Virus record (IMG/VR): IMGVR_UViG_3300001346_000004
Reading direction: 5' to 3' (one strand)
Length of the DNA stretch: 20,000 nt
DNA from: an uncultured virus (IMG/VR IMGVR_UViG_3300001346_000004)
Taxonomy: Duplodnaviria; Heunggongvirae; Uroviricota; Caudoviricetes
Below are positions 2,219-20,000 of the stretch, piece by piece. Position 1 is the first letter of the stretch, and every line of letters begins with the position of its first letter. The translations under genes were made by a program, and so were the position numbers. The notes under the pieces are model-generated. The model did no database searches. It saw only the letters and a program-made list of their open reading frames with translations, and was not told the origin of the DNA.

Positions 2219-2220
2219 AC

Positions 2221-3071: not shown

Positions 3072-3103
3072 AAAAGAGTAAATTTAACTAAAAGGAGAAG
3101 GTA

Positions 3104-4651: not shown

Positions 4652-5243
4652 TAAATTACATGCAGACATGTGGTTTCCTAGTATCTTGTGGAGTACAATG
4701 CTTGAAGACATAGATAATAAAGCACTAGTTGAGTATGCCAATCAATTAAGAAGCCAAGATAGTGAAGGGCAACATCATAGTAACAGAACAGGATATCATA
4801 GTACTTACATAGAAAACAGTAACAACAATGCTTATATTAAACTACTAGAAAGAATAAACAGTTGTGTAAATGAATGTGCAAAAAGTGTGCGATTAGGTGA
4901 TGTAAAATTGGCAAACATATGGTTCATGATTAATGGCAAAGGAGCCTACAATATTCCACATACACATCCTGGATCAATTCTAAGCGGAGTGTATTATCCA
5001 TATGCTATTCCAGGTATGGGTGCATTTGCATTTGAAAGAACAGACGGAGCAGAACACTATCTACCAACAGTTCCAGAACCTACTCCATTTAATGTAGGAA
5101 ATTGGCATTATCCAAGTGAGACTGGAAAATTACTTATATTTCCAAGTTGGTTACGTCACCATGTAGAACAGAATCAGATAGATGAAGAAAGAGTAAGTAT
5201 TTCATTTAATTTTTCTAGTACAAGGGAGTATCAAGATGCCTGA
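4644..5243 (+). CDS. 2OG-Fe(II) oxygenase (TIGR02466-like phage family)
   Basis: PHTHPGSILSGVYY, LLIFPSWLRHHV, RVSISFN. Confidence 0.88.
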   Translation: MDNKLHADMWFPSILWSTMLEDIDNKALVEYANQLRSQDSEGQHHSNRTGYHSTYIENSNNNAYIKLLERINSCVNECAKSVRLGDVKLANIWFMINGKGAYNIPHTHPGSILSGVYYPYAIPGMGAFAFERTDGAEHYLPTVPEPTPFNVGNWHYPSETGKLLIFPSWLRHHVEQNQIDEERVSISFNFSSTREYQDA

Positions 5244-5808
5244 TATAGATATAGATTTTTTAGATAGAGAAAAAGCATTATCTCATTTTAAACATGTTCG
5301 TGCAAGACGTGAAGATGATGGTAAGGTACTTAAACACAACACAGGAGTTTACATGCACGAGGTTCCTTTTGATCCTAAAAATAACTTGTGTAGTATAGAG
5401 TATGACAAAGCCGAAGATAACGGTTTGTTTAAACTTGATTTCTTAAATGTATCGTTATACAAAGGNATCAAGAACGAAGAGCACCTAACAAAATTAATGG
5501 ATAAGGAACCACTATGGGAACTACTAGAACAGGACGATTTCTCAAACTTGCTCTTTCACGTCAACGGACATGGTATCATATTAAGAAAACTGAAACCAAC
5601 AAACATACCACAGTTGGCAGCGGTACTAGCGATGATACGTCCGGCGAAGAGACATCTGATAGAAAAGACGTGGACGGACATTATGAACGAGGTGTGGACG
5701 AAGCCTAAAGGTAATGAATACTTCTTTAAAAAATCTCATGCAACAGCATATGCGGTAGCAGTTGTTGTACAAATGAACTTAATCTGCGAGCAATTATATG
5801 AACTATGA
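5236..5808 (+). CDS. dnaE: Miniature DNA polymerase III alpha (C-family) catalytic fragment
   Basis: MPDIDIDF, KHNTGVY, GLFKLDFLNV, LAAVLAMIRPA and YFFKKSHATAYA are the DnaE palm/finger motifs, in order, within 190 aa. Confidence 0.85.
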   Translation: MPDIDIDFLDREKALSHFKHVRARREDDGKVLKHNTGVYMHEVPFDPKNNLCSIEYDKAEDNGLFKLDFLNVSLYKXIKNEEHLTKLMDKEPLWELLEQDDFSNLLFHVNGHGIILRKLKPTNIPQLAAVLAMIRPAKRHLIEKTWTDIMNEVWTKPKGNEYFFKKSHATAYAVAVVVQMNLICEQLYEL

Positions 5809-6037
5809 AATGAACGATTATAGAAAACCCCCTAAAAAACCTAAGTTAGGTAAATGGCCTTTTTGGGTTGTTCCTGAATTCTGGGCATTACAATACGTAA
5901 CAAGACTTGCATTGGTATTGTTTGTCCTGCCATTCTTGTTCGGCATGGCACTAACACCCGGTGGTATATTCTTAATGTTTATAGTGTATGATTATGTGAC
6001 TTACCGCTCACTTAAGACGGCTTTCGGACTAGAGTAA
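5798..6037 (+). CDS. Small membrane protein
   Basis: Two hydrophobic segments (LALVLFVLPFLFGMAL; GIFLMFIVY). Overlaps the dnaE stop. Confidence 0.6.
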   Translation: MNYEMNDYRKPPKKPKLGKWPFWVVPEFWALQYVTRLALVLFVLPFLFGMALTPGGIFLMFIVYDYVTYRSLKTAFGLE

Positions 6038-6383
6038 TTGACTTACGTTTTATTCTTTTAATAATAATATTGTTTAAACTTGTAACCGGACCATGCAAAA
6101 CTCTTACATCTTTTGAAGTAAAATTGCGTATTGTGTATGCAAACTGTTGTATTTCATTGCGTAAAAATATATTGATAGGAACTTGCCTGTTTGACTCCCA
6201 CCACCATGCTTCTCCTAGCTCAAGCATCTTACTTTTCTCTTCATCAGTACTACACAATTCATAGTCATAGAAGCTCGTAACATTGCTGTCTTGGTTTATT
6301 ATTATTCCCACATATTCCTTGTCAGAGTGTGTTAATACGCTAATAAACGGGAAGTTCTCTTGTAAATTTTTTGTTATTCTCAT
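6012..6383 (-). CDS. Phage hypothetical protein (WWWESNR motif)
   Basis: 123-aa ORF with a globular, protein-like sequence; divergent from the gene at 6438. Confidence 0.8.
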   Translation of the reverse strand: MRITKNLQENFPFISVLTHSDKEYVGIIINQDSNVTSFYDYELCSTDEEKSKMLELGEAWWWESNRQVPINIFLRNEIQQFAYTIRNFTSKDVRVLHGPVTSLNNIIIKRIKRKSITLVRKPS

Positions 6384-6408
6384 TCTTTTTTTAGATAGCT
6401 CTCATCGA

Positions 6409-6414
6409 TAAATA
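6409..6414 (+). promoter_or_regulatory. T4-like late promoter core TAAATA
   Basis: gATAAATA in the intergenic gap, 23 nt before ATG 6438 (a probable virion gene). Confidence 0.55.
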
Positions 6415-6437
6415 GTATAAAGGTTCATGTTAAACAT

Positions 6438-7334
6438 ATGCAAATTAACTCAATATATTTATATCCAAACAAGTTGGATGTTTACACAAGTGACACAGCA
6501 ACTTGGACTGCGGAGAGAAACAGAATGGTATACAATCGTAATCTAAAGGTCTATAGAGGATCAGACAATCGCATTGATCTGCAACTACGAAACGGCGATC
6601 AAAAAGCGTATAATGCTACAGGCAGCACTATTATTTTTAATCTAGTGAACAACGAGACGCAAGATTTAGTTGTAAGAAAAGATTGTAGTGTAGATGACAT
6701 CAGTGTAGGCAGAGTATACGCTACTATTACAGAAGAAGAATTATTAGACATAGAAGCAGGATATTACTCATATAGTTTCCACAAAGAAACTAGAACTAAC
6801 GTAGATAGTACTGATTACAAAGTTGAGTCAAAGACACCGCTATACATGGATAGTCAATACGGTGCTATTGGCACTATAGAAATAATAGGTGGTATGGAAG
6901 GTAAACCTTATGATACTAAAACTGTTGACACATTCAGAAAAATTACTAATTTTGATGTACCATCAGAGAAATCATCTGGAGATCCATTAGATAGTCCACG
7001 TCCAAACTTTGCACAAAATTATAATACATCAGGATACGAAGAATATTTTATTAGTAGCACAATAGAAGCAAATCCAAGAATGTCTACACCACAAAGTTTA
7101 CACACATTCCAATTTTACTACAACAACTATATTGGAGATGTAATACTTCAAGGAAGTTTGGGAGAAGGTGGTAATCCAATTGAAGGATCATGGACAAATA
7201 TTAATACATTTACAATCACAGCAGCCAATTTAAATGAATTCCATAATGTTACAGGAAAGTATAATTGGTTTAGAATTAAGCATACTCCGGACGAAAATAA
7301 CACAGGAACAGTTGACAAAGTATTATATAGATAG
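6438..7334 (+). CDS. Probable virion structural protein (beta-rich, baseplate/BppU-N-like N-terminal half)
   Basis: T/N/S/Y-rich beta-strand pattern (NRIDLQLRNGDQKAYNATGSTIIFNL...GRVYATIT...GYYSYSF) with a late-promoter motif upstream. The function is inferred. Confidence 0.55.
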   Translation: MQINSIYLYPNKLDVYTSDTATWTAERNRMVYNRNLKVYRGSDNRIDLQLRNGDQKAYNATGSTIIFNLVNNETQDLVVRKDCSVDDISVGRVYATITEEELLDIEAGYYSYSFHKETRTNVDSTDYKVESKTPLYMDSQYGAIGTIEIIGGMEGKPYDTKTVDTFRKITNFDVPSEKSSGDPLDSPRPNFAQNYNTSGYEEYFISSTIEANPRMSTPQSLHTFQFYYNNYIGDVILQGSLGEGGNPIEGSWTNINTFTITAANLNEFHNVTGKYNWFRIKHTPDENNTGTVDKVLYR

Positions 7335-7340
7335 TATAAT
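7312..7340 (+). promoter_or_regulatory. Perfect-consensus sigma70 promoter for the primase gene
   Basis: TTGACA (7312-7317), 17 nt, TATAAT (7335-7340); ATG starts 7 nt after the last base of the -10. Confidence 0.9.
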
Positions 7341-7346
7341 ACATGT

Positions 7347-8378
7347 ATGACTTTGGTTCTAGATACATTTCAGACACTTATTCCGCCTCGGGCAAAAAGT
7401 AATCCAAGCGGTTGGACTAGTTTTAATGCTCCGTGTTGCCATCATCGCGGACATAGTACTGACAAGCGTAAGCGTGGTGGACTTAGATTTGATTCAGGTG
7501 TAGTTTTTAACTGTTTCAATTGTAAGTATACTGCTAGTTGGCAACCTGGCAGACCGTTATCTGAAAAGTTTAAATCTTTATGTAGATGGCTAGGCGCATC
7601 AGAAGATACTATCAATGTTATGATATTCGAAGCATTGAAAACAGAATCTCCTGAATACACGCCAAGAGAATCACAAGTCAGGATATCATTTGCAGAAAAG
7701 AAACTTCCTGATAACAGTTTGCCAATTGCTGAATGGCTCGACTCCGACTTTGCTGGCAATAAAAAACTTGAAGAAATGTTTGCAAAAGTTGTTGCATATA
7801 TCTATGACAGAGGATTTGATCCAACAAGTAAAGACTTTTATTGGAGCCCTCAAGAAGGATACCAAGACAGAGTAATAGTTCCTTTCTATTACAAAGGTAA
7901 AACAGTTGGTAACACAGCAAGAAAGGTAAGAAGCGGAAGGCCTAAATATCTAAGTGATCATCACAATAGTTTTGTATATAACATTGATGCACAAGAAGAA
8001 GATCAGAAATATATATTTGTTACAGAAGGTCCTTTCGATGCATTATCTGTCGATGGTGTAGCATTACTTACAAACAATGTAAGCGAGCAACAATATAGAA
8101 TTATCCAAGGACTAGGACATGAAGTAATTGTTATTCCAGATCAAGATGAAGCAGGAATAAACTTAATTAATAAGTCAATTGAATATGGTTGGAGTGTTGC
8201 TTTTCCTAATTGGGAAGATGATGTTAAAGATATAGCAGACGCTGTAATAAAGTATGGTAAACTATTTGTTATGATGGATGCTATTAAAACTGCACAAGCA
8301 GGATCAATAAAACTTAACATGGCAAAGCAGAAGTTTAAGAATAAGTTGGAGAAAATAAATGAAAAAGCAACTATGTAA
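7347..8378 (+). CDS. dnaG: DNA primase (T4 gp61/DnaG-like)
   Basis: N-terminal Zn-binding FNAPCC...FNCFNC, RVIVPF, PKYL, Toprim motifs VTEGPFDA and IPDQDEAG, KDIAD. Confidence 0.9.
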   Translation: MTLVLDTFQTLIPPRAKSNPSGWTSFNAPCCHHRGHSTDKRKRGGLRFDSGVVFNCFNCKYTASWQPGRPLSEKFKSLCRWLGASEDTINVMIFEALKTESPEYTPRESQVRISFAEKKLPDNSLPIAEWLDSDFAGNKKLEEMFAKVVAYIYDRGFDPTSKDFYWSPQEGYQDRVIVPFYYKGKTVGNTARKVRSGRPKYLSDHHNSFVYNIDAQEEDQKYIFVTEGPFDALSVDGVALLTNNVSEQQYRIIQGLGHEVIVIPDQDEAGINLINKSIEYGWSVAFPNWEDDVKDIADAVIKYGKLFVMMDAIKTAQAGSIKLNMAKQKFKNKLEKINEKATM

Positions 8379-8484
8379 TATATGGAATAAAGTAAAAAAA
8401 TACTTTACAGATATATATTTTAAATTTAAGATGAGAAAAAAGATAAAGGAAATGAAAAGGAAAGATCCGTTTATCTACAAATAA
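8359..8484 (+). CDS. Small basic protein, 41 aa, ending KRKDPFIYK (absent from the ORF track)
   Basis: MKKQLCNIWNKVKKYFTDIYFKFKMRKKIKEMKRKDPFIYK. GGAG RBS upstream; fills the gap between the primase and the next gene. Confidence 0.75.
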   Translation: MKKQLCNIWNKVKKYFTDIYFKFKMRKKIKEMKRKDPFIYK

Positions 8485-8507
8485 CAAGAATGGAAAGGAT
8501 ACATCGA

Positions 8508-8744
8508 ATGAAGAATGAGTTTCAAGTAGGAATATTTGAAGTATTCAAGAATTTACTAAAAGGAAATAGTATAACCTTAGCACTAATATATACAGCAGGA
8601 CATGTTATAATAGCAATGAATGTTGTGTATTGGATGACAGGCGCAAGTCTTTTCGAAGCAGGATTAGTTGCTTTGGTTGAGCCAAGTATCAACGGCGTTT
8701 GGTTTTACATTTTACATAAACTATGGAAAAAATATAACACATGA
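8508..8744 (+). CDS. DUF2061-like small membrane protein
   Basis: LALIYTAGHVIIAMNVVYWMTG...ALVEPSINGVWFYILHKLW pattern. ATG 8508 follows AAGGA (alternative start 8490). Confidence 0.7.
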   Translation: MKNEFQVGIFEVFKNLLKGNSITLALIYTAGHVIIAMNVVYWMTGASLFEAGLVALVEPSINGVWFYILHKLWKKYNT

Positions 8745-10213
8745 TAAGTTGGGGCATAAGTGCCAATAGTCACGATGGTTCATTAGCAGTATTTGATAAT
8801 AACGAATTAGTATTTGCTAGCCATACAGAAAGATTTAGCGGGTTAAAAAATGATCCGCACCTTAATAAACCATTGCTTGATTATGCAAGACAGTGGGGAG
8901 AACCTAACGAAGTGATATGGTATGAGAAGCCATTTAAGAAAACTGTAAGACAACTGTATGCTGGGCAAGGCTGGAACTGGAACGAAAACAATGTTAAAAG
9001 TTATCTAAAACAATTTAACATTAATGCACCCTTAGGTTACAGTAACCACCATGAAAGTCATGCAGCCGCAGGATATTACACTAGCGGATTTAAAGATGCA
9101 ACTGTTATAGTTCTTGACAGTATAGGTGAATGGGAAACTTATACTATCTGGGAAGGTAACGGAGACAAACTTAAGAAAGTATACTCACAAGAATATCCAC
9201 ACAGTGTAGGATTGTGGTATAGTGCAATGACACAGCGAGTAGGATTAAAGCCTAATGAAGATGAATATATTCTAATGGGAATGGCTGCATACGGAGATCA
9301 AAGAGAACACTATCATCATATGCGAGAAACATTCTTTGAACTTGGGCCGCACGATCACTGGACCTTTCCTGATGTAAAATTTAAACACAATTTACATAGA
9401 GGATGTAAATGGTATAGAGAAGGATACAATAAATGGACTGACAAACTTAATATTGCAGCAGCAACGCAAAGCATATACGAAGATATATTCATAGGGATAG
9501 TTGAACATTGCTTTAACAAATATAAAAGTAAAAATTTAGTTGTAATGGGCGGGTGTGCATTAAACTGTAAGGCAAATAGCAAAGCATCTGCATATTATAA
9601 AAATGTATGGATAATGCCTAATCCAGGCGATGCAGGTAGTAGTGTTGGTGCTGTATTAGCACACAAAGGCAAACATATTAAATGGCAAAGTCCTTATTTA
9701 GGATACGACATAAAAGGTGAATATCCTGTAGATAATCTATTTAAAAAACTTAAAAGTACAGGTATGGTAGGTGTTGCAAATGGAAAAGCAGAGTTTGGGC
9801 CTAGAGCATTAGGCAATAGAAGTTTACTTGCAGATCCGAGAGGGCAGGACATGAAGGACAAAGTAAACTCAATAAAGAAAAGACAAAAATATAGACCATT
9901 TGCTCCGGTAATTTTGGCAGAACATGCTGAACAATATTTTTATGGTGATGTAGGACCATACATGCAATTTACATCTAAATGTAGAAAAGCAAAAGACTTT
10001 CCTGCAATTGTACATGTAGACGGAACAAGTAGAGTGCAAACTGTTGGTAAAGATGATAATACAGGTTTACGAGAACTTTTGGAAAGATGGTATGGCAAGA
10101 CTGGATGCCCAATGTTACTTAACACTAGTCTAAATATCAAAGGAAAGCCGATGGTTAATAACGAAAAGGATGCAAAAAAGTTTGCTCATAAGTACGGTGT
10201 GAGTGTATACTAA
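8741..10213 (+). CDS. Carbamoyltransferase, NodU/CmcH family
   Basis: GISANSHDGS, HHESHAA, DSIGE, EYILMGMAAYG, GGCALNC, PGDAGSSVG, EFGPRALGNRSLL, RPFAP, HVDGTSRVQTV, LNTSLN. Confidence 0.95.
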   Translation: MISWGISANSHDGSLAVFDNNELVFASHTERFSGLKNDPHLNKPLLDYARQWGEPNEVIWYEKPFKKTVRQLYAGQGWNWNENNVKSYLKQFNINAPLGYSNHHESHAAAGYYTSGFKDATVIVLDSIGEWETYTIWEGNGDKLKKVYSQEYPHSVGLWYSAMTQRVGLKPNEDEYILMGMAAYGDQREHYHHMRETFFELGPHDHWTFPDVKFKHNLHRGCKWYREGYNKWTDKLNIAAATQSIYEDIFIGIVEHCFNKYKSKNLVVMGGCALNCKANSKASAYYKNVWIMPNPGDAGSSVGAVLAHKGKHIKWQSPYLGYDIKGEYPVDNLFKKLKSTGMVGVANGKAEFGPRALGNRSLLADPRGQDMKDKVNSIKKRQKYRPFAPVILAEHAEQYFYGDVGPYMQFTSKCRKAKDFPAIVHVDGTSRVQTVGKDDNTGLRELLERWYGKTGCPMLLNTSLNIKGKPMVNNEKDAKKFAHKYGVSVY

Positions 10214-10246
10214 TAGAATAATTATGTATGAAGGTAAAGAAAATTA

Positions 10247-11689
10247 ATGGCTGATACTAAAAATTACGATTACGAAGTCCAAAAAGTTTATTTGGAAATG
10301 ATGCTGGCTGACGCAGAAACATTTGTGCGTTGTCAAGGTATCTTTGATCATACACTATTTGACAGAAAATTGCAAGATGCTGCAGAGTTTGTAAATGAAT
10401 ACACAAAGCAGTATAGTGTAATGCCTGACTTTGAAACAGTAAATGCAAGTTGCAGAACTGATTTGAAAGCACCAAAAGAACTTAAAGAAGGACATCTACA
10501 ATGGTTAATGGATGACTTTGAAAGTTTTACAAGGCACAAAGCACTAGAACGTGCAATTATTAATTCAGCAGATTTATTAGAAAAGAATGACTATGGATCA
10601 GTAGAAGCCATGGTTAAAGATGCAGTTCAAATTGGACTGGCACGTGACATGGGTACAGATTACTTTTTAGATCCAAGAGCAAGACTTATGGGACTTAAAG
10701 ATAAGAACGGACAGGTTAGTACTGGTTGGGATACCATGGACAGAAAACTGTTTGGTGGTTTTAACAGAGGCGAACTGAATATTTTTGCAGGTGGATCGGG
10801 TGCAGGTAAAAGTTTATTCTTAGCAAACTTAGGTGTTAACTGGGCACTACAAGGATTGAATGTTGTTTACTTAACACTTGAACTTAGTGAGCAACTTGTA
10901 AGTATGCGTGTGGATAGTATGGTAACAGGTATTACTACAAGAGACATTTTCAAGAACATTGACGATGTTGAAATGAAAGTTAAGATGATTGGTAAGAAGT
11001 CGGGTGCATTACAAGTTAAGTATATGCCTAGTGGTAAAACTACAAACGATATTAGAGCGTATTTAAAAGAGTATGAAATTAAAGTAGGCAAGAAAGTAGA
11101 TGTATTATTAGTAGACTACTTAGACTTGTTGATGCCTGTAGGTAAAAAAATTAGTGCAGAGAACTTGTTTGTTAAAGACAAGTATGTATCAGAAGAACTT
11201 CGTAACCTAGCAATGGAATTACAGTGTGTGTTTGTAACTGCGGCACAGTTGAATAGAGGTGCAGTAGAAGAAGTAGAGTTTGATCACTCGCACATAAGTG
11301 GCGGACTTAGTAAGATTCAAACAGCAGATAATGTAATAGGTATCTTTACAAGTAGAGCAATGCGTGAACGTGGACGTTATCAATTACAACTTATGAAAAC
11401 ACGTTCTAGTAGTGGTGTGGGACAAAAAGTAGATTTAGAATTTAACATTGAGACACTAAGGATTACTGATCTTGATGAGGATGAACAAGAAGCAACGAAC
11501 GGTAACAATAGAGGCAGCAGTAGTATAATAGATAGCATTAAAAGAAAAACAGAAGTACAAAACACCCAAGATCCTACAAATGATGATCCAACACAAGGAG
11601 TATCAGTAGGTAAAATCAGAGGCAAAGTAGAGTCAACAAAATTGCGTGAGATTTTGAATAATATGGGTGATGATGATGAGGAACACTAA
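10247..11689 (+). CDS. dnaB: Replicative DNA helicase (T4 gp41/DnaB family)
   Basis: STGWDTMD, Walker A GGSGAGKS, YLTLEL, Walker B LLVDYLDL, TAAQLNR, MKTRS; acidic C-terminal tail. Confidence 0.93.
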   Translation: MADTKNYDYEVQKVYLEMMLADAETFVRCQGIFDHTLFDRKLQDAAEFVNEYTKQYSVMPDFETVNASCRTDLKAPKELKEGHLQWLMDDFESFTRHKALERAIINSADLLEKNDYGSVEAMVKDAVQIGLARDMGTDYFLDPRARLMGLKDKNGQVSTGWDTMDRKLFGGFNRGELNIFAGGSGAGKSLFLANLGVNWALQGLNVVYLTLELSEQLVSMRVDSMVTGITTRDIFKNIDDVEMKVKMIGKKSGALQVKYMPSGKTTNDIRAYLKEYEIKVGKKVDVLLVDYLDLLMPVGKKISAENLFVKDKYVSEELRNLAMELQCVFVTAAQLNRGAVEEVEFDHSHISGGLSKIQTADNVIGIFTSRAMRERGRYQLQLMKTRSSSGVGQKVDLEFNIETLRITDLDEDEQEATNGNNRGSSSIIDSIKRKTEVQNTQDPTNDDPTQGVSVGKIRGKVESTKLREILNNMGDDDEEH

Positions 11690-11918
11690 AGTTACATTGT
11701 ACCAATGGACCGGAAATAATCATCCAGACGAATACTTTGATATAGATTGGCCGGCTGTACACAAAGAATGTGGTGTAGATCATATAAACTGGCTAAACAG
11801 ACAACCCCATGATAAATGTCAATTAAGTTTAGAATTTTTCCGTGGCGGCAAAAGATTAATAGTAGAATTTTTCAACAAAGAGACAGCAAATAGATATTAC
11901 TTAATGTGGGCTAAATAG
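11667..11918 (+). CDS. Hypothetical protein (start uncertain among tandem ATGs)
   Basis: 83-aa ORF overlapping the helicase end and filling the gap to 11923. Confidence 0.65.
   Translation: MMMMRNTKVTLYQWTGNNHPDEYFDIDWPAVHKECGVDHINWLNRQPHDKCQLSLEFFRGGKRLIVEFFNKETANRYYLMWAK
11912..11917 (+). promoter_or_regulatory. Late promoter TAAATA, leaderless arrangement
   Basis: cTAAATA-gtagt-ATG (11923); no Shine-Dalgarno. Confidence 0.6.
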
Positions 11919-11922
11919 TAGT

Positions 11923-12636
11923 ATGCGCATACAGGACCTACTATTCGAGCAAGCAGATTTCGTTACAGTCAATAGAAGACTGAATCCTAAACTATGGAAA
12001 AATGACACTCTTAAACCTGAGATAAAAGAGCAATTAATTAAAATTGCAAAAGTATTTGAAGAGTTTATTGGTATTGACATAGAAGTAATCAACTATACAA
12101 TTACAGGATCAAATGCAAACTATATGTGGACTGAATACAGTGATTTAGATTTACATATTATTGTAAAAGGACTGCCTGATGAAAAAGAACGTGAATTGTT
12201 CAATGCTAAAAAAGCATTATGGGCAGAAGAACACAACATCACTATCAAAGGTTTACCTGTAGAATGTTATGTACAAGGATCAAAAGAAGAACACCATTCA
12301 ACAGGTGTTTATAGTATAGTTACTGATCAGTGGTTAGAAAAACCTAAAAAAGTAAAACCAGAAGTTGATGACGCGGCAGTAAAGGCTAAGAAGAACAGTA
12401 TTCATCATGATATAGAAACTGCACTTCTAAGTAAAGATATTACTAAACTTAGACAAGTTAAAACAAAGATTACACAGATGCGTAAAGCAGGGCTTGCAAA
12501 AGCAGGTGAATGGTCTGTTGAGAATCTTGTGTTTAAAATTCTTAGAAATTTAGGAATGATAGACAAACTTACACAAGAAATTAGAGATCTTGAAGACCAA
12601 GAATTAAGCCTAGAAACTGCACCAATCTTACAATAA
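11923..12636 (+). CDS. Pol-beta superfamily nucleotidyltransferase
   Basis: ITGSNANYMWTEYSDLDLHII (GS...DxD) and a third carboxylate in PVECYVQ. Confidence 0.82.
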   Translation: MRIQDLLFEQADFVTVNRRLNPKLWKNDTLKPEIKEQLIKIAKVFEEFIGIDIEVINYTITGSNANYMWTEYSDLDLHIIVKGLPDEKERELFNAKKALWAEEHNITIKGLPVECYVQGSKEEHHSTGVYSIVTDQWLEKPKKVKPEVDDAAVKAKKNSIHHDIETALLSKDITKLRQVKTKITQMRKAGLAKAGEWSVENLVFKILRNLGMIDKLTQEIRDLEDQELSLETAPILQ

Positions 12637-12687
12637 TTTTTCCAAAAAACTATTAAATATAATATAATAGAAGGAATATTCGAACGC

Positions 12688-13149
12688 ATGAGATTGCAAA
12701 AGATTAATGTTATAGATCCTTGGATACAAGAGATTATAAAAGACGATCCGGTAAGGGCTGAGATACCTATCGATCATCGAATCAATGAAGACGCTGAAAT
12801 TTACGCATTATGGAATGATACAGAACTAGGTGCTATAACCTGTGTATCATATACTGAAGGCATACCTGGAAGTGTAGAAGAAATGTACAGTCTATCAAGT
12901 CCTTTTATGGATACGGTTGTATTCTATACAATTTGGAGTTACACAAAAGGCTCTGGACGTGAATTAATTATCAATGCATCAAAAAGTATTCTAAAAGAAC
13001 ATCCTACAATTAAAAATATTGTAACACTTAGTCCCAAAACAGAAATGGCTGAAAAGTTTCATATTAGAAACGGTGCATGGTATTTTAGAGAAAACTCCGA
13101 CACAATAAATTACGCATACAAACTAGATGAAAGAATACATACCCTTTAA
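12688..13149 (+). CDS. GNAT-like fold protein
   Basis: YTIWSYTKGSGRELI (motif A-like) and TLSPKTEMAEKFHIRNG (motif B-like); RBS GAAGGA. Confidence 0.55.
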   Translation: MRLQKINVIDPWIQEIIKDDPVRAEIPIDHRINEDAEIYALWNDTELGAITCVSYTEGIPGSVEEMYSLSSPFMDTVVFYTIWSYTKGSGRELIINASKSILKEHPTIKNIVTLSPKTEMAEKFHIRNGAWYFRENSDTINYAYKLDERIHTL

Positions 13150-13333
13150 GGTAGTAGCAATATTATTGTTAAGCCTTGTCGTTAGTTGTTCTAATGGAAT
13201 TAAGAACTGTGACTTTAATCCTGGCGTAAAAATAGAATCCAAAACGCCTTCCGAAAATAAAGACGATGAATCTTTATCCAAAAACTTACCTGTACAAGTA
13301 TCGCCAAAAGGTGAAGTCGCCTGTACTTTTTAG
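13127..13333 (+). CDS. Small putative lipoprotein
   Basis: Hydrophobic signal peptide ending LVVS-C. Confidence 0.6.
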   Translation: MKEYIPFKVVAILLLSLVVSCSNGIKNCDFNPGVKIESKTPSENKDDESLSKNLPVQVSPKGEVACTF

Positions 13334-13362
13334 TTGACTTTCAATAACTTATATTATATAGT
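13334..13362 (+). promoter_or_regulatory. Sigma70-type promoter for the tRNA gene
   Basis: TTGACT (13334-13339), 17 nt, TATAGT (13357-13362); the tRNA starts at 13371. Confidence 0.75.
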
Positions 13363-13370
13363 ATAACTAT

Positions 13371-13447
13371 CTGCTCGTAGCTCAGCCGGATAGAGCACTA
13401 GTTTGCGGAACTAGAGGCCGGTGGTTCGAATCCACCCGAGCAGGCCA
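13371..13447 (+). tRNA. tRNA-Arg, anticodon GCG, encoded CCA
   Basis: Acceptor stem CTGCTCG/CGAGCAG, D arm GCTC/GAGC with A20, anticodon stem CTAGT/ACTAG with loop TT-GCG-GA, T arm GGTGG-TTCGAAT-CCACC, G73, CCA. Confidence 0.95.
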
Positions 13448-13467
13448 AAAACTAACAAAAGGAATGT

Positions 13468-13731
13468 ATGACATCAAAAACAATGTGGACAATAGTAGCA
13501 ACAATAACAATTGCATTTGTAATATTAGTAACTTCAACTAGTGCAAATGAAACAAAAACAATCAACAACAAAGTAAATCAATTTATCGTAGAAGAAAAGA
13601 ACGAAATAGTTGAGTACCAAAAAGAAAATTGGCAAAAGGGTAAAGAACAAATTGCACAAAATAAAAAACAAATTTCTGATTTTTGGATAAAGGCATGGAG
13701 ATTAGTAAGACTCTATACTACTGCTCAATAA
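13468..13731 (+). CDS. Hypothetical protein with N-terminal signal/TM segment and coiled coil
   Basis: RBS AAAAGGA; hydrophobic N-terminus ending TSA-N. Confidence 0.7.
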   Translation: MTSKTMWTIVATITIAFVILVTSTSANETKTINNKVNQFIVEEKNEIVEYQKENWQKGKEQIAQNKKQISDFWIKAWRLVRLYTTAQ

Positions 13732-13739
13732 ATAAGCAT

Positions 13740-14042
13740 ATGATCGGATCAATTATATTTTTTATAGGATTTACTGTAATGACGTTAAACGAAGGGTTCG
13801 TTATAATGCGTCATGTACATCCTTGGTTTGCAAACAAACGTGATGCACTGATTGCTAAACACGGCGCAGCGTGGAAGAAGTTTCATGCTACACTAGACTA
13901 CGTATGGATAGGTGGTGTAACAATAGGTATAGCAGTAGACTATACTAACTGGAAGTTTTACGCAACTGTGTTAGCAATCTTTTGGGGAATAGTTGCAGTA
14001 TTTGTCTACTTACCTTTACTAATTAAAAAACTTAAAAAGTAA
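13740..14042 (+). CDS. Membrane protein (about 3 TM segments); start revised to 13740
   Basis: TAAATA (13729-13734)-agcat-ATG 13740. This start removes the overlap with the previous gene. Confidence 0.72.
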   Translation: MIGSIIFFIGFTVMTLNEGFVIMRHVHPWFANKRDALIAKHGAAWKKFHATLDYVWIGGVTIGIAVDYTNWKFYATVLAIFWGIVAVFVYLPLLIKKLKK

Positions 14043-14068: not shown

Positions 14069-14114
14069 TAAACACCGTCTAAGACGCATTTTAAGCGTCA
14101 TACAGCGGTGTTTA
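14069..14114. other. Intergenic extended stem-loop
   Basis: TAAACACCG (14069-14077) pairs with CGGTGTTTA (14106-14114) and encloses GACGC (14083-14087)/GCGTC (14095-14099). Confidence 0.7.
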
Positions 14115-14901: not shown

Positions 14902-15044
14902 TATCTTCCTTGTCCTTTATAAAATTTGTGACTTCGCTTTTTGTGTTTGTTCATACTGCTCATTTTGCATCTTCCTTTAGTACCAGCAGTGCTAGATTTT
15001 TTAGGCGTGCTTTCATGTGCCACAAAGTGCTTGTGTATTTTCAT
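14901..15044 (-). CDS. Small highly basic protein, 47 aa, ending NKHKKRSHKFYKGQGR (absent from the ORF track)
   Basis: MKIHKHFVAHESTPKKSSTAGTKGRCKMSSMNKHKKRSHKFYKGQGR. RBS AAGGA; its stop overlaps the next ATG. The Y(K/R)GQG(K/R) C-terminus resembles peptides I recall from T4-like marine phages. Confidence 0.8.
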   Translation of the reverse strand: MKIHKHFVAHESTPKKSSTAGTKGRCKMSSMNKHKKRSHKFYKGQGR

Positions 15045-15091
15045 AACTATCCTTGGGTTAGGTTGATTTTAGTTATGTGAGTAGTTATCTC

Positions 15092-15316
15092 TTATTGGGG
15101 ATTATTACAGGTATTTGGTGCAAATACGCAGCCTAATGCGTTTGCTATACCTTGGAAGTTTGGAGGACTTGTTTGTAGTGTGCTATCTTCAACAGCGTGT
15201 TCTTGCTGATGAGCTTCTTCTATTTTATCTAGTATGGGTCGTTGACCACAGGCTTGTACACTGAGAAGGACCAGAACTAACATCAATGCTATTGCTAATC
15301 TAATCTCCCAATTCAT
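15092..15316 (-). CDS. Putative lipoprotein
   Basis: Signal peptide ending VQA-C; TAAATA-ccctgt-ATG upstream. Confidence 0.7.
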   Translation of the reverse strand: MNWEIRLAIALMLVLVLLSVQACGQRPILDKIEEAHQQEHAVEDSTLQTSPPNFQGIANALGCVFAPNTCNNPQ

Positions 15317-15325
15317 ACAGGGTAT

Positions 15326-16186
15326 TTAGCGGTTGTTAAAATACTTTTTATATACGCAGTTTGCGAAGTTTTTGTGATGTGTTACACTTGGATGCATGTC
15401 ATTTTCTGCTGTTGGTATACTAGGATCTAGTATTGCTTCACAACTGGTATGATCCACAGGTATCGTATACCATGTTCTAGGATCGGGTATTTCCCATGGC
15501 TCTTGCAGTGTAGGATCAAGGTCTAGTGCTGCACGTTCAAGTTGCTCTATATATGGATCTGTTTCAACACTTAGATGTATAACATTTTTAGTACGTGAAC
15601 GCAAAAAGCCATCAGTCATAATTTGTAGCAATAGACTGTTATGATATCTGTCGTATACTCCTAGTGGATTAAACGTGGTGTTTGTGCTATCGTGTATAAA
15701 CTTGTATAGTTCGTCATCAACTGCACTTACAATATTGCTGCCTCTAGCACTAGCAGTACTTGCACTCAATCCAAACAGTTTGTTGAATCCGGGCCACAGC
15801 ACTGTGCTTAGACTTTTTTTAGCATCTACATAATGATGTAATGGCACTGATGTTCTAGCAGGCCACTGCATGCTGACTCTGCCTAGATAGGTCCACATAA
15901 CAACCACTGTATCATCAGGTTGTACTTGTTGTTGTGCAACTGCACACTGTCTAGCAATCTGCTGAAAGCAACTGCCACGTCGAGCATGATTTACCACAGT
16001 CATGTCAAGAGCATCTCCAAGCACTTGAGGCCAAGCATGCTTGCTGGGTGTGCTTAACATTTCGTCCGACCAATGATTGTCTCTGTCTAGTTCTTGTTGT
16101 TGTTCACTTGTTAGTGGAGGTGCAACTACATCAGGTAGTGCAAAGCCTTGTGTTATACTGCAACCAAATGTGTGTAGTGTACTCAT
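15326..16186 (-). CDS. SGNH/GDSL-hydrolase-like protein
   Basis: TFGCSITQG (block I), NHARRGS (block II), DMHPS..HH (block V). Confidence 0.7.
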   Translation of the reverse strand: MSTLHTFGCSITQGFALPDVVAPPLTSEQQQELDRDNHWSDEMLSTPSKHAWPQVLGDALDMTVVNHARRGSCFQQIARQCAVAQQQVQPDDTVVVMWTYLGRVSMQWPARTSVPLHHYVDAKKSLSTVLWPGFNKLFGLSASTASARGSNIVSAVDDELYKFIHDSTNTTFNPLGVYDRYHNSLLLQIMTDGFLRSRTKNVIHLSVETDPYIEQLERAALDLDPTLQEPWEIPDPRTWYTIPVDHTSCEAILDPSIPTAENDMHPSVTHHKNFANCVYKKYFNNR

Positions 16187-16187
16187 G

Positions 16188-16802
16188 TTATTGTATTCCG
16201 GTTATGTCAAGTTCTTTGGTATCGTCACCTATTGCTCCAATGGGCATGGTGTTAAATGCTATGCTGTATCTATAGTCTGTGTCGCTAGGGTCTACATGGT
16301 GTTTCAGTCTACTGGGAAACAGTATTACGTATCCTTGCTTGATGGGCACTTTGAGTACCTGCCAAGTGTGCGGATTGTTTTCTTGCCATAGTACTGTAGG
16401 CCTAACCATGAATAGATCTTCTGTAAGCAGTGGATTGTGAAAGTTTAATGGAGCACCATCTGTAAGATAAAACACACCACTTACATAACTGTTTGGATGT
16501 GTATGCGTGTGTATTGGTTCCGACTTTCTCAGTGTGTTACCCCAACTGTTGCCTATCTGTACACCTGTGACTGTATGTCCTTGAGTGTGTACATACTCCA
16601 ATGCAAGCAGTTCAAGTTCTGATTTAGTCTGTGCAAATACCGGTGCATCCAGCAAGCGTTGCGACTGTGTGACTGCACCATTAGTGCCAGACTGCTTGTC
16701 AGTTTCTGGTATGCTCTGCAAGTACTCTAGTGCAGCACCTGTGTCCAAATTAACTATAGGGGCTACCCCAATCCATGTGCCAAATATCTGTATCATCTGC
16801 AT
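16188..16802 (-). CDS. 2OG-Fe(II) oxygenase (TIGR02466-like), second paralog
   Basis: HTHPNSYVSGVFYL, ILFPSRLKHHV, RYSIAFN; TAAATA-tagtc-ATG upstream. Confidence 0.88.
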   Translation of the reverse strand: MQMIQIFGTWIGVAPIVNLDTGAALEYLQSIPETDKQSGTNGAVTQSQRLLDAPVFAQTKSELELLALEYVHTQGHTVTGVQIGNSWGNTLRKSEPIHTHTHPNSYVSGVFYLTDGAPLNFHNPLLTEDLFMVRPTVLWQENNPHTWQVLKVPIKQGYVILFPSRLKHHVDPSDTDYRYSIAFNTMPIGAIGDDTKELDITGIQ

Positions 16803-16841
16803 GACTATATTTAACGATGAAGTGCAGGTGCAGGCATAAAA

Positions 16842-16919
16842 GCGGCGAAGCCGTAAGCGCAGATTTTGCCGCGTAGCGGTAAGCGAGATTAGAGCTGCGA
16901 AGCAGCAAGCGGTAGCGCA
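16842..16919 (+). repeat. Three tandem 26-nt units, each a GNA-triloop hairpin followed by AAGCG
   Basis: GCGGC-GAA-GCCGT-AAGCG (16842), GCCGC-GTA-GCGGT-AAGCG (16868), GCTGC-GAA-GCAGC-AAGCG (16894). Confidence 0.85.
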
Positions 16920-16993
16920 GCAAATTTGTAACGGTTTTTCTCGTGGCCCCGGAGACTGTCGTCACGGTGCTGCTAGTGTGTTAGTGGGAATGT

Positions 16994-17203
16994 TTAGGCT
17001 ACGTTAGTGCCAGGTGTATACTCTTCAACAAATCCTGTCCATGTGTCACCAGTGCGTCTGCTTAGTTTTGCTGCATATTGATCAGCAAAGTCTTGTGCCA
17101 GTTTCTTTTGTGACATAGTGAAGTTGTTGCTGTACTGATTGCGATTCTGTACAGTTAGTTTGGTAGTTTCGTTGCGAGCTTTTGCTATGAGTCTTGTTTG
17201 CAT
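16994..17203 (-). CDS. Hypothetical protein
   Basis: gATAAATA-caatc-ATG upstream; 69 aa. Confidence 0.72.
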   Translation of the reverse strand: MQTRLIAKARNETTKLTVQNRNQYSNNFTMSQKKLAQDFADQYAAKLSRRTGDTWTGFVEEYTPGTNVA

Positions 17204-17232
17204 GATTGTATTTATCCTTTGCGCAAAAGAGT

Positions 17233-17330
17233 AGAACTTGTTTGTCTAATTTAACACACGCTGTTTGTATCTAGCACATAACAGTGCGTATCTATCTGAC
17301 TTGAAGTGTGTATTATAACAACAAGTTCTT
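17233..17330 (-). ncRNA. Candidate structured small RNA (rod with paired ends)
   Basis: Gap with no credible ORF. A 10-bp perfect terminal inverted repeat AGAACTTGTT/AACAAGTTCT, a further ACACAC/GTGTGT stem and a central GCAC/GTGC hairpin. TAAATA-N5 places +1 at 17330. Confidence 0.55.
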
Positions 17331-17372
17331 AATAATATTTAACTAGTAACACAGTATACTGCTTGTAATAGG

Positions 17373-17588
17373 CTATTTAGACGCTATTTTAACAGTGTAC
17401 AACTCACTTGAACCTAGTATAGCACATGCTAGTGTACAGTCTTTAGCACTGTGTAGTATAATTGAATTATGACTGTTTTGACTGCTGTCTATGCCCTTTA
17501 CAAACAGTTCTATTACTGCACTGTGCGTAATGTTATCACAGTAGTCGTGCAGTTTGTTGTCTGGGTAGGCTAGGTGCAGTGTGTACAT
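17373..17588 (-). CDS. Hypothetical protein
   Basis: 71 aa; TAATG coupling with the upstream ORF. Confidence 0.6.
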   Translation of the reverse strand: MYTLHLAYPDNKLHDYCDNITHSAVIELFVKGIDSSQNSHNSIILHSAKDCTLACAILGSSELYTVKIASK

Positions 17589-17803
17589 TATGTGCCGCTA
17601 GAGTGATCCGTTTCTGCATCTACACAGTGCATGTAGTCTCTATAGTGTAGATAGAATGTTCTATGCTGTTTAAGACTGGTATCCAACCAAAAACGTGTTC
17701 TATTGATGTGTGCTTCAAACTTTACGTTGTGTTCTTGTATACGGTTGAACAGCAGTGGCGTGTTCACAAAGTCTCGGGTGTATACACAGTATTGTTTAAT
17801 CAT
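17588..17803 (-). CDS. Hypothetical protein (FEAHINRTRFW)
   Basis: 71 aa; AAGGA RBS; overlaps the upstream 40-aa gene. Confidence 0.7.
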   Translation of the reverse strand: MIKQYCVYTRDFVNTPLLFNRIQEHNVKFEAHINRTRFWLDTSLKQHRTFYLHYRDYMHCVDAETDHSSGT

Positions 17804-17918
17804 TCATGAATTTCCTTGCTATTAAGAGATTGCAAGTTACTACAACTACCCAACCATTTTCATATACCACATACTGGTCTGGTTTGCGATTGCGTCGATG
17901 TGTTACTAACTTGCGCAT
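17796..17918 (-). CDS. Small hypothetical protein, 40 aa (absent from the ORF track)
   Basis: MRKLVTHRRNRKPDQYVVYENGWVVVVTCNLLIARKFMND; preceded by gaTAAGTA-tacac-ATG. Confidence 0.65.
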   Translation of the reverse strand: MRKLVTHRRNRKPDQYVVYENGWVVVVTCNLLIARKFMND

Positions 17919-18069
17919 GTGTATACTTATCTTGAAATGGGTCTACAGGGATAAAAAAATTGCTGCGCAAAAAATTGTGGTGGAGTACTTTTCATTTCTG
18001 GGTGGTGATTCTAGACCACTAGCCAATCAAAATACACTATATGCGCATACGTACTATACCGGTCGGTGT

Positions 18070-18252
18070 CTATGTGACCACCACCTCATCATCGATGACA
18101 AAAATAATATTATCGAAACGGTCACGAACTTCTACTCTTTCAGCGTCGTAATCATCTGAGCAGTGAAGGGCAACCTCTTCGGCTTCTTCTTGTGTTTCGT
18201 AGAAGCCCTCGTATTGCTCTACTGTGTCCTGTGTGTAGTAGACTCTGTACAT
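18070..18252 (-). CDS. Small acidic hypothetical protein; start revised to 18252
   Basis: MYRVYYTQDTVEQYEGFYETQEEAEEVA...; GGGGA RBS; starts just after the stop of the upstream gene. Confidence 0.7.
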   Translation of the reverse strand: MYRVYYTQDTVEQYEGFYETQEEAEEVALHCSDDYDAERVEVRDRFDNIIFVIDDEVVVT

Positions 18253-18253
18253 G

Positions 18254-18481
18254 CTAGTCCCCACAGTCCTGATTGCGCATCCAACTGTAACGCTCTGCCT
18301 TGGGCACGCTGCATGCTCGCTTACGCAGTGCTTCACCTTCCCAGTTAGGGATCTGATCTATCAATTGGTTGCTGGTGAAGTTAGGATCATATGGACGATC
18401 CTTGTCGTATGGATACACACAGCCTCCTAGCGTGCATCCTATTAACAGTATTACTGCCCAACGGCTGATCGTATTTTCCAT
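18254..18481 (-). CDS. Putative lipoprotein
   Basis: Signal peptide with lipobox LGG-C; AAGGA upstream. Confidence 0.7.
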   Translation of the reverse strand: MENTISRWAVILLIGCTLGGCVYPYDKDRPYDPNFTSNQLIDQIPNWEGEALRKRACSVPKAERYSWMRNQDCGD

Positions 18482-18606
18482 ATTACTTCTTCCTTAATGT
18501 CTGCATTGCCATATAGGTTGTATGCATTAGTAGAGTGCTGTACATCACGTAGGCTACACGCACTACACAACATCACAGCACACACTAACAAGAATGCCTT
18601 ACGCAT
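18451..18606 (-). CDS. Putative small lipoprotein, 51 aa (absent from the ORF track)
   Basis: MRKAFLLVCAVMLCSA-CSLRDVQHSTNAYNLYGNADIKEEVIWKIRSAVGQ; GGAG RBS; overlaps both neighbours. Confidence 0.7.
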   Translation of the reverse strand: MRKAFLLVCAVMLCSACSLRDVQHSTNAYNLYGNADIKEEVIWKIRSAVGQ

Positions 18607-18802
18607 CCTCTTCTCCATTTACTGCAAGTATCATTCCACCAAACAGTGTCATAATTAAACCTACAAATGCTATTAACAGCATCTCACCAAATGTGTTAGC
18701 AGTCTCCATACATGCACCATCACAGTCATTAGCACTACCAGCCATAGCCATAATGCCTACTGCTATCAATACCATTGCTATTGTGTTTATAATCGTTTTC
18801 AT
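18599..18802 (-). CDS. Small 2-TM membrane protein with a DCDGAC loop; start revised to 18802
   Basis: AAAAGGAGCGATT-ATG; two hydrophobic helices. Confidence 0.8.
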   Translation of the reverse strand: MKTIINTIAMVLIAVGIMAMAGSANDCDGACMETANTFGEMLLIAFVGLIMTLFGGMILAVNGEEDA

Positions 18803-18832
18803 AATCGCTCCTTTTGTTTGTTTCATACTACT

Positions 18833-18861
18833 AATATATGACATTAGGGGCTGTTTGTCAA
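18833..18861 (-). promoter_or_regulatory. Sigma70-type early promoter, -35 enclosed by an 8-bp inverted repeat
   Basis: TTGACA (18861-18856), 17 nt, TATATT (18838-18833); inverted repeat ATTAGGGG (18843-18850)/CCCCTAAT (18862-18869). Confidence 0.8.
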
Positions 18862-18884
18862 CCCCTAATATCCAAAATGTAGCC

Positions 18885-19274
18885 TTAGTCTGCACGCGAA
18901 CCCATGTGCATTTTTACGCCATATTCACGCCATACAGCAGCATAAGCACTGGCACCCACTTCTTTGCAATCCATGCTCTGCCCTCTATGCTGTGCAGGAT
19001 CCCACAGTTGAAGAACACCACTTTGGTAGCTCTTACGGAAACCTATGCTCTGTAGAGCCTTGCCCAGTTTACTATTGCTTCGCTCTTTAACATCTACCCA
19101 AGCAAATCCACAATACATAGGCTCACCATACTGGTTGCCGCCTGTGCTTTCTGTCCATTCGTCCAGCATCTTAGCAACAGCAGCCTTAGCAGCACTGGTT
19201 GCTTCTGTGTGGATCATTTGGACCTTTACTGTGTCAAATGTTGGTGTCGCTGTTACGGTTTTTTCTACAAACAT
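18885..19274 (-). CDS. Phage hypothetical protein (CGFAWV motif)
   Basis: AAAAGGAGCGAAT-ATG with its own promoter; 129 aa. Confidence 0.85.
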   Translation of the reverse strand: MFVEKTVTATPTFDTVKVQMIHTEATSAAKAAVAKMLDEWTESTGGNQYGEPMYCGFAWVDVKERSNSKLGKALQSIGFRKSYQSGVLQLWDPAQHRGQSMDCKEVGASAYAAVWREYGVKMHMGSRAD

Positions 19275-19305
19275 ATTCGCTCCTTTTGTTTAAGTTAGTA
19301 AGTAT

Positions 19306-19334
19306 ATAATACTATCATTCTTCCAAAATGTCAA
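19306..19334 (-). promoter_or_regulatory. Sigma70-type early promoter
   Basis: TTGACA (19334-19329), 17 nt, TATTAT (19311-19306). Confidence 0.8.
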
Positions 19335-19557
19335 CCTCTTTAGGAGGTAAATTTCTCAGTTTTATGATCAAATCATAGAAGTTATTGAACGCTTTATCTT
19401 CCTGGTTTTGCTCGAAATACACAGTGGGCGCAGGTATGCATATGCTCTTCTGCTCTGGATAACTGTCGTTGATTACCGTTGCTGCCTTGGTGCAGGTGGC
19501 CTCTGTGTCGTATAGGGGTTGCCCGGCTAGCATAACACTCAGAAGCAGGAACTTCAT
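19315..19557 (-). CDS. Hypothetical protein with a short hydrophobic N-terminus and two Cys; start revised to 19557
   Basis: TAATG overlap with the upstream gene and an AAGGAGG RBS. Confidence 0.75.
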   Translation of the reverse strand: MKFLLLSVMLAGQPLYDTEATCTKAATVINDSYPEQKSICIPAPTVYFEQNQEDKAFNNFYDLIIKLRNLPPKEVDILEE

Positions 19558-19970
19558 TACGCTGCCTCCTTGATGTATTCCTCGCTCCACGCTTCACGCT
19601 CACCCTTAGGCAGCATCTTGTAGCTCTGGGCCTTGCCCTTGTAGCCAGGTTGCCAATAGTCTTCTGCCTTCACATAACGGCTGGCATAGAAGCCCATGTC
19701 CTCTGCATATATGGTCCACGGAGTTTCCCACTCTTCGCATATCACAGCGTCATCCTCTACAACCTCTGCGTTGAGAATGTATTCTTCGGACCCGTCGTCC
19801 TTGTACTCGATTAGGTCTCGCAGAGCGGGCACCAACAGTTCCGTGTCTACTCCTGGGAGCACGAAGGTCTCTCCGCCTTTGAACTTCCAATACTGTGGAC
19901 ACTCGCCTTCGCCGTCCCATGTGTGGGCGCCGTAGTTTTCTTTGAACTGTGTGTGGATTACTAATTTCAT
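19557..19970 (-). CDS. Acidic phage hypothetical protein (ENYGAH.WDG.GECPQYWKFKGG)
   Basis: AAAGGAGCGAGCAT-ATG; 137 aa. Confidence 0.85.
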   Translation of the reverse strand: MKLVIHTQFKENYGAHTWDGEGECPQYWKFKGGETFVLPGVDTELLVPALRDLIEYKDDGSEEYILNAEVVEDDAVICEEWETPWTIYAEDMGFYASRYVKAEDYWQPGYKGKAQSYKMLPKGEREAWSEEYIKEAA

Positions 19971-20000
19971 ATGCTCGCTCCTTTATTGTTTATACTTACA

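Follow-up and report, generated by a model that had tools for sequence, protein, structure and literature searches.

A conserved single-locus array of GNA-loop mini-hairpins beside an insertion hot spot in an uncultured phage: a candidate boundary cassette

Introduction

What role might a row of very small GC-rich hairpins play when it is kept in one non-coding gap between two phage genes? The question arises from a 20,000-nt stretch of DNA from an uncultured virus (IMG/VR record IMGVR_UViG_3300001346_000004), referred to here as the window, in which three mini-hairpin units lie on the + strand from position 16842, within a 191-nt gap between two − strand genes, an open reading frame (ORF) of 69 amino acids (aa) and the gene for a 2OG-Fe(II) oxygenase. 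The array is structured, conserved in relatives, confined to a single locus and adjacent to an insertion hot spot. The reading favoured here, tentatively and with a probability of about 0.35, is that it lies at the centre of a non-coding cassette, structured and conserved, that would mark a boundary for transcripts and recombination; the cassette would be particular to one clade of uncultured jumbo phages from marine and estuarine settings.

The mini-hairpin array

An earlier sequence-only reading of the window had placed three units at 16842, 16868 and 16894, with AAAA on the 5′ side of unit 1 and a third stem pair (X:X′) that is G:C, C:G and T:A in units 1, 2 and 3, respectively; the + strand, which runs AAAA-GCGGCGAAGCCGTAAGCG, CAGATTTT-GCCGCGTAGCGGTAAGCG, AGATTAGA-GCTGCGAAGCAGCAAGCG, bears out each of these points. 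Unit 1 (16842–16859, + strand) pairs GCGGC with GCCGT, the outer pair being G·T, around the loop GAA; unit 2 (16868–16885, + strand) pairs GCCGC with GCGGT around GTA; and unit 3 (16894–16911, + strand) pairs GCTGC with GCAGC around GAA. The foldable structure is in each case a 5-pair stem with a 3-base loop, each unit has the tail AAGCG, and the mini-hairpin cores GCGAAGC, GCGTAGC and GCGAAGC begin at 16845, 16871 and 16897.

A scan of the 20 kb with the pattern GCNGCGWAGCNGYAAGCG (up to three mismatches) returned three matches, all of them array units, against an expectation of 0.10, and none of 200 shuffled sequences attained three. GC-rich triloop hairpins with a stem of at least 4 bp occur 12 times on each strand of the window, those with G-N-A loops being confined to the array units. 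The array region is also a local GC peak (GC 0.52 and GC skew +0.25 at 16800–16999), in agreement with the GC-rich island described previously. Standard nearest-neighbour DNA folding recovers the three hairpins together with a small fourth one; with these parameters, which hold no special term or bonus for GNA mini-hairpins, the stretch folds no better than shuffled sequences (z = −0.40 on the + strand and −0.46 on the − strand).

The three hairpins seen at the outset are real, and the element to which they belong is larger. Its extent, as defined by an alignment of 49 distinct relatives (A1), is ~135 nt (16838–16972, + strand), comprising four mini-hairpins, an A/T-rich spacer and a fifth hairpin. 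The fourth mini-hairpin (16909–16918, + strand), which can be written as GCG-GTAG-CGC or GC-GGTA-GC and is the one predicted by DNA folding, is identical in 49/49 sequences, though it lies inside the search pattern, and its counterpart in locus L118 is GC-GAA-GC. The fifth (16946–16970, + strand) is an interrupted hairpin of eight pairs that shows covariation in A1 and is separated from the 69-aa gene's stop codon by ~24 nt (16971–16993). Five of its eight pairs vary on both sides (columns 138:156, for example, are CG in 23 sequences and GC in 15), 65% of its alignment cells are paired, with variant types aligning poorly, and it is missing in a few loci, including L125 and L150. A covariance model built from units 1–4 (R1) gives the window element a score of 105.8 bits.

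Other structures and readings of the element were considered and dropped. The variants of a palindrome 3′ of hairpin 4 (CAAATTTG/CAGATCTG) are inconsistently palindromic, and a long-range pairing between unit 1 and the fourth hairpin, proposed by RNAalifold, is broken by a change in L195 that keeps the local hairpin. For a tRNA-like reading, ARAGORN finds only a tRNA-Arg at 13371–13447. A coding reading is rejected by indels of 1–4 nt among the relatives that are not multiples of three and break the frame; together with the position of the element between the ORF stop at 16994 and the oxygenase start at 16802, this supports the non-coding status assigned to it earlier. Rfam gave no match up to E = 10 in 16000–18000. 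In another intergenic gap (17950–17985, − strand), TTTTTTGCGCAGCAATTTTTTT presents a GC-GCA-GC mini-hairpin core between T-runs.

Conservation in relatives

Pattern scans retrieved six IMG/VR loci and 68 metagenome stretches with the element; among the latter, L147 and L192 are chance matches in GC-rich DNA and L135 is a distant partial copy. Many records are duplicates, such that 72 viral or metagenome loci reduce to 51 distinct sequences. The 50,697 deposited phage records hold no DNA match to either the 1.4-kb region or the 140-nt element, and both the element and the 69-aa gene are missing from cultured relatives. Over the 58 nt that the search pattern leaves unconstrained, the mean pairwise identity of the element is 75%, against 57% for the adjacent 69-aa gene (300 pairs), so constraint is stronger on the non-coding element than on the adjoining coding DNA.

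The loops follow a simple rule. In unit 1 (n = 50) they are GAA in 36 relatives, GTA in eight, GCA in four and GGA in two; in unit 2 (n = 51) they are GTA in 24, GGA in 12, AGA in 11, GAA in three and GCA in one. A G-N-A loop with a free middle base is therefore kept on one DNA strand in 50/50 copies of unit 1 and 40/51 copies of unit 2. The spacing is looser: across the 51 distinct sequences, unit 1 is followed by unit 2 after 23–27 nt and unit 2 by unit 3 after 26–29 nt, while units 1 and 3 are 49–56 nt apart, with a value of 52 in 23/50. The exact 26-nt period of the sequence-only reading thus holds for the window copy and belongs to it alone.

Stems are nearly constant within orthologous units. 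The four inner pairs of unit 2 are invariant (49/49), unit 1 of L195 carries a compensatory stem (CGCC/GGCG), and unit 3 is invariant in the family, but that part is fixed by the search pattern; it also occurs in the reduced form of L118/L119 and in L135, L038 and L086. The foot pair of units 1 and 2, read on the + strand, is G·T in 72 cells and A·C in none, a bias that leans towards the + strand as the folded strand and reflects one or two events. Across 67 distinct units, G7, C8, A11, G12 and C13 are invariant and G9 nearly so, and in most units GCG lies 1–3 nt 3′ of the stem. In these 67 units, whose rows were preselected for pairing at columns 5:15 and 6:14, the second stem pair (5:15) is C-G in 60, G-C in six and A-U in one, and the third (6:14) is C-G in 38, G-C in 23 and U-A in six. 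Without preselection, both flanking pairs are complementary in 25 of the 32 distinct 13-mers with a GC-RNA-GC core (R and N as base codes), and the opposite strand of the array regions holds no such core. On this comparison, selection on pairing is well supported.

These data uphold the two central claims of the sequence-only reading, that selection acts on structure (stems differ between units and between relatives yet stay complementary) and that the hairpins are strand-asymmetric. The outcomes that it had named as damaging did not appear: equivalent hairpins are present in relatives, substitutions that break pairs are rare, and the region is untranslated.

Divergent arrays and their contexts

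Run over the loci already fetched, R1 also scored more divergent arrays, in L038 (48.7 bits), L086 (46), L089 (45.6), L135 (33) and L118/L119 (19.1). A two-unit pattern scan matched at least 120 stretches and, among the matches listed, six loci passed the hairpin filter: new arrays in L257, L264 and L285, the L038 contig again, and two simple repeats. The two simple repeats lie in the viral contigs L232 (1500–1600) and L296 (~300–350) and consist of nothing but tandem copies of the heptamer GCGAAGC or of a 12-mer containing it. The divergent arrays have two or three units, other stems (GCGC, ACGC, GCCGC, TGCGC) and loops that are all GAA, most of them with GCG one to three bases past the stem.

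Taking the hairpin strand as reference, both neighbouring genes lie on the other strand in the window family and in L118/L119, and both share the hairpin strand in L022, L089 and L285; in L086 the downstream gene is on the hairpin strand, and in L038, L135, L257 and L264 the genes are convergent, with the array 6–13 nt past the stop of the hairpin-strand gene. Arrays of two or three units thus stand directly 3′ of stop codons in L022, L089, L285, L038, L135, L257 and L264. Most contexts would fit derivation from one ancestral junction, in which a 141-aa gene and the 69-aa gene converge on the array ([141-aa gene →][array][← 69-aa gene]). In L201–L204 these genes converge directly, with no array between them, and a homologue of the 141-aa gene lies on the hairpin strand 1.6–2 kb left of the array in L127–L130, the window copy being at 12715–13122. 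Later gene insertions appear to have occurred on either side of the array, and synteny breaks at its edges (L086 versus L195). In L118, whose reduced array has two hairpins, a perfect TATAAATA box at 2950–2965 lies ~35 nt 5′ of the oxygenase ATG, with a GAGG ribosome-binding site after it.

Only one array locus is present in each of nine partial contigs, of 186, 41, 41, 39, 36, 31, 25, 19 and 15 kb, and no dispersed copies of the REP/BIME kind were found in these contigs or in the window.

The insertion hot spot and neighbouring genes

The constant right-hand neighbour of the element is the 69-aa gene (16994–17203, − strand), conserved across the family loci; wherever enough flank is available, the element follows its stop on the − strand. 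Its product matches no PHROG or Pfam family and has no match in the 50,697 deposited phage records; a search with the single protein found no relatives, and one with a nine-sequence alignment found seven loci.

To the left, a hot spot containing zero, one or two differing cassette genes extends from the element to a small lipoprotein-like gene (15092–15316, − strand; ..ACGQ), which forms its conserved far border. The distance between the two is 44–45 nt in L127, L130, L143 and L172, 82–123 nt in three loci, 624 nt in L189, ~548 nt where there is one cassette, a family-2 sulfotransferase (PF03567), and 1522 nt in the window, where the 2OG-Fe(II) oxygenase and a 286-aa gene are present. The oxygenase (16188–16802, − strand; phrog_81; PF13759, E = 8.7e-17) and the sulfotransferase are the cassettes with a family match, and the oxygenase position is taken in relatives by other genes. 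The 286-aa gene (15326–16186, − strand) matched no family, and a homologue with 53% identity adjoins the two-unit array of L038 in the opposite orientation.

The start codon of a cassette gene is often only 8–13 nt away from hairpin 1 and follows a TAAATAC motif; in the window, the distance from the oxygenase start is 36 nt to the A-run before unit 1 and 40 nt to the stem of the hairpin, and the motif TTAAATAT (16807–16814, − strand) is 4 nt before its ATG. More generally, (A/T)TAAATA(C/T) is found 4–5 nt before the ATG at the window starts 14630, 15316, 16802 and 17203, in L089 and L139, and in inserted cassettes. It resembles the T4 late-promoter box, but its distance from the ATG is too short to leave room for a normal leader; it may serve to start translation, or as a promoter of leaderless mRNAs.

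The phage and its genome

The sequence-only reading had taken the virus for a T4-like phage, which proves imprecise. The DnaB-like helicase of the window (10247–11689) is closest, at 51% identity, to those of the jumbo phages PA5oct and Atu_ph07, and on this evidence the phage is an uncultured jumbo-phage relative and not a classical T4-like cyanophage. CheckV rates related contigs of 35–41 kb as 10–11% complete, a figure that points to genome sizes near 350 kb. A DnaG-type primase (7347–8378) is also encoded, both replication genes lying 5–9 kb from the element.

The + strand gene block (window 1–14000) has a GC content of 33–37% and the − strand block with the element (15000–20000) one of 38–47%, and near 14 kb, where the blocks converge, the sign of the AT skew changes along with gene direction. 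At this junction (14076–14086), a 4-bp hairpin, CGTC-TAA-GACG, is followed by CATTTT and may be a small terminator. The single N of the window, at 5466, falls inside an ORF (5236–5808) that matches a DNA polymerase PHROG.

Possible functions

As a boundary cassette, the element would work at two levels. Each unit would fold on a single strand into a 4–5-bp GC hairpin capped by a G-N-A triloop, and the row would stand between a block of conserved small genes and a hyperplastic zone. At the RNA level, the hairpins would mark off transcript ends and shield them, or insulate the start of the next gene, while the near-invariant sequence would offer a homology anchor for the exchange of cassette genes between co-infecting relatives, comparable to that of PeSL cassettes. 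Contigs from four RNA libraries of one study (X1–X4) cover and bridge the element, for example 16645–17331 in X4; being contigs only, they carry no strand, ends or levels, nor proof of transcription. A 204-nt contig over the element reaches higher depth in X3, where several strains have probably been summed.

Several findings weigh against this boundary reading. A consensus scan found no sigma-70 promoter in 16803–16993, and the element has no site for a canonical terminator (a GC stem with a U-run within 0–2 nt). A T-run of at least four within 18 nt follows nine of 29 units on the hairpin strand and six of 29 on the other, usually after a 5–7-nt tail; given so few T-runs, the array is not a set of canonical terminators, a terminator-like appearance being found in some relatives (L285, L264 and L038). 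The reduced array of L118/L119 has divergent neighbours and no confirmed stop codon directly before it. PeSL cassettes are multi-copy and have a promoter, whereas the window element is single-locus and shows none. Above all, an RNA hairpin active in either orientation explains neither the G-N-A loop kept on one DNA strand nor the G·T bias of the foot pair, and the one-strand loop rule keeps a role in single-stranded DNA (ssDNA) alive.

A strand-specific ssDNA signal is possible, if doubtful: the unwound + strand would extrude d(GC-GNA-GC)-type mini-hairpins that resist single-stranded DNA-binding protein (SSB) and nucleases, forming a site for primase or helicase loading, fork pausing or the start of recombination, from which the neighbouring insertion hot spot would follow. 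The loops, with their free middle base on one strand, the foot pair and the lack of a GC-RNA-GC core on the opposite strand all speak for it, as do the primase and helicase genes, the single locus in each contig and the synteny breakpoints at the array edges. PMC13037366 describes GCGNAGC DNA mini-hairpins as extraordinarily stable and their RNA versions as much less so, places motifs of this type at the complementary-strand origins of G4, St-1 and alpha3 and at ssiA of RSF1010, and reports poor SSB binding by a fragment with two such mini-hairpins; this greater stability as DNA, and the presence at primase-dependent origins, make an ssDNA role plausible. On the other side, a comparison with GC-skew inflections, proposed in the sequence-only reading, revealed none at the element within the window, and the element lies inside a co-directional gene block with no strand switch. 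The G·T pair could belong to the conserved tail and stem from one or two evolutionary events, and the AGA found in 11/51 unit-2 loops lacks the sheared G·A pair. A narrower version of this idea would make the array a strand-specific ssDNA recombination or priming site whose extruded mini-hairpins recruit the phage replisome or a recombinase, serving as a docking point for cassettes; this is an unlikely proposal, which would make the element a phage counterpart of the integron attI site, built from GNA mini-hairpins. Should the hairpins work as DNA, we would know of no earlier case in which a large double-stranded DNA phage uses the mini-hairpin motif as a conserved signal.

The near-invariance of the stems in each orthologous unit, unusual for a plain structural hairpin, would suit an array of binding sites for one sequence- and shape-specific phage or host protein that regulates downstream genes, its target in RNA or DNA being the hairpin with the single-stranded GCG tail. 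The invariant columns, the GCG past most stems and the cassette start codons close to hairpin 1 at many loci agree with this; inter-unit spacing is variable, however, and no partner protein is constant, the 69-aa neighbour being missing beside the arrays of L022, L089, L285, L038 and L135 and a 52%-identical homologue of its gene occurring where there is no array, such that this explanation is rather improbable. A small non-coding RNA gene or leader, transcribed from the + (hairpin) strand as a unit separate from the − strand genes on either side, is harder still to sustain. It draws on L285, which has a TATAAATA box ~18 nt upstream of its two-unit array on the hairpin strand and T-runs of 5–7 after both units, and on the contexts in which the hairpin strand is sense for both neighbours (L022, L089, L285) or the downstream gene (L086). 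Among the window-family loci, though, the left flank varies, no conserved + strand promoter was found, Rfam is silent, and the RNA-library contigs give no strand. Little more can be said for a small selfish or mobile hairpin repeat, similar to REP/BIME or palindrome-associated elements, moving among intergenic sites of related phages: partial copies in unrelated contexts (for instance that of L135), unit numbers of two to four and conservation above that of its flanks are what it would predict, but there is a single locus in each contig searched, including that of 186 kb, most contexts trace to one ancestral locus, and no transposase is seen nearby. Least probable by far is the leftward N4-type promoter of the sequence-only reading, in which the + strand would be the template for a phage single-subunit RNA polymerase transcribing into the cassette genes. 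The geometry fits, PMC13037366 giving a 5-bp stem and a 3-nt GAA or GGA loop for the promoters of the N4 mini-virion RNA polymerase; AAAA stands 5′ of unit 1 in the window, and the cassette genes of the window family lie to the left on the − strand, starting 8–40 nt from hairpin 1. Against this, the 5′ flank is unconserved (TAAAA, TTTAA, TTTA and GAAT, among others), the central loop base may be A, T, C or G, and units 2 and 3 would fire into other hairpins. The transcript would be antisense to the identified 5′-side gene in seven of ten contexts (L022, L089, L285, L038, L135, L257 and L264) and co-oriented with it in only two (the window family and L118/L119), the left-hand gene of L086/L206 counting on neither side. 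A search for the PF00940 polymerase in five partial contigs (4–53% complete) found no match, which weighs little, the control genomes being equally silent.

The boundary cassette remains, tentatively, the favoured account of an element that exceeds its neighbouring genes in conservation and marks the edge of a site at which auxiliary genes such as the oxygenase and sulfotransferase are exchanged. Neither Rfam nor the 50,697 deposited phage genomes contain it, and its occurrence is confined to uncultured jumbo phages of marine and estuarine origin. Should the hairpins act as RNA, this would be a new kind of boundary cassette, and in either case the covariance model provides a handle for finding the hot spot in metagenomes.

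Comparison with known systems

Short GC-rich hairpins clustered after genes in either orientation are also a feature of REP/BIME repeats, which are dispersed in tens to hundreds of copies, whereas the window element is single-locus. Unusually stable mini-hairpins between phage genes are shared with the C(UUCG)G intercistronic hairpins of T4, reportedly described by Tuerk et al. in 1988; those are said to be RNA tetraloops, whereas the element has a loop that reads G-N-A on one DNA strand and would be U-N-C in the mRNA of the window. CRISPR-repeat mimics, ToxI-like repeats, ANTAR, TRAP and boxB-type sites were provisionally set aside on loop size, unit divergence or spacing.

PeSL cassettes of T4-type phages (PMC4122927, PMC2839356) are likewise small, conserved intergenic stem-loops of a hyperplastic region with indels and gene replacements. 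The element similarly stands at a boundary of indels and replacements, with zero, one or two genes before the lipoprotein gene. According to PMC4122927, however, each PeSL has an early promoter of the sigma-70 type, and a genome contains many of them; the element is not a PeSL, because it has no promoter in 16803–16993 and is not multi-copy, with one locus in each of the nine contigs.

Of the systems that use hairpins in ssDNA, N4 promoters, as presented in PMC13037366, share with the array a 5-bp stem, a 3-nt loop on one strand and, in the window copy, a 5′ A-run. Promoters of this kind have template-strand stems of 5–7 bp, a specific central loop base and conserved bases from the hairpin to the start site; the array differs in its variable flank, free loop base, three tandem units and an orientation that fits some contexts only. 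The G4, St-1 and alpha3 origins and RSF1010 ssiA, as given in PMC13037366, have in common with it a non-coding cluster of hairpins and mini-hairpin cores, to which the DnaG-type primase of the window genome may be added; they act on single-stranded genomes or plasmid strands, whereas nothing seen here ties the window element to replication. Compared with d(GCGNAGC), the window hairpins have longer stems (4–5 bp), a constant GCG tail and a tandem arrangement in a double-stranded DNA phage. The likeness in sequence to the d(GCGNAGC)/d(GCGNNAGC) mini-hairpins, as these are set out in PMC13037366, is nevertheless close, with GC-GNA-GC, the C-G closing pair and the free middle base present in all units of the window.

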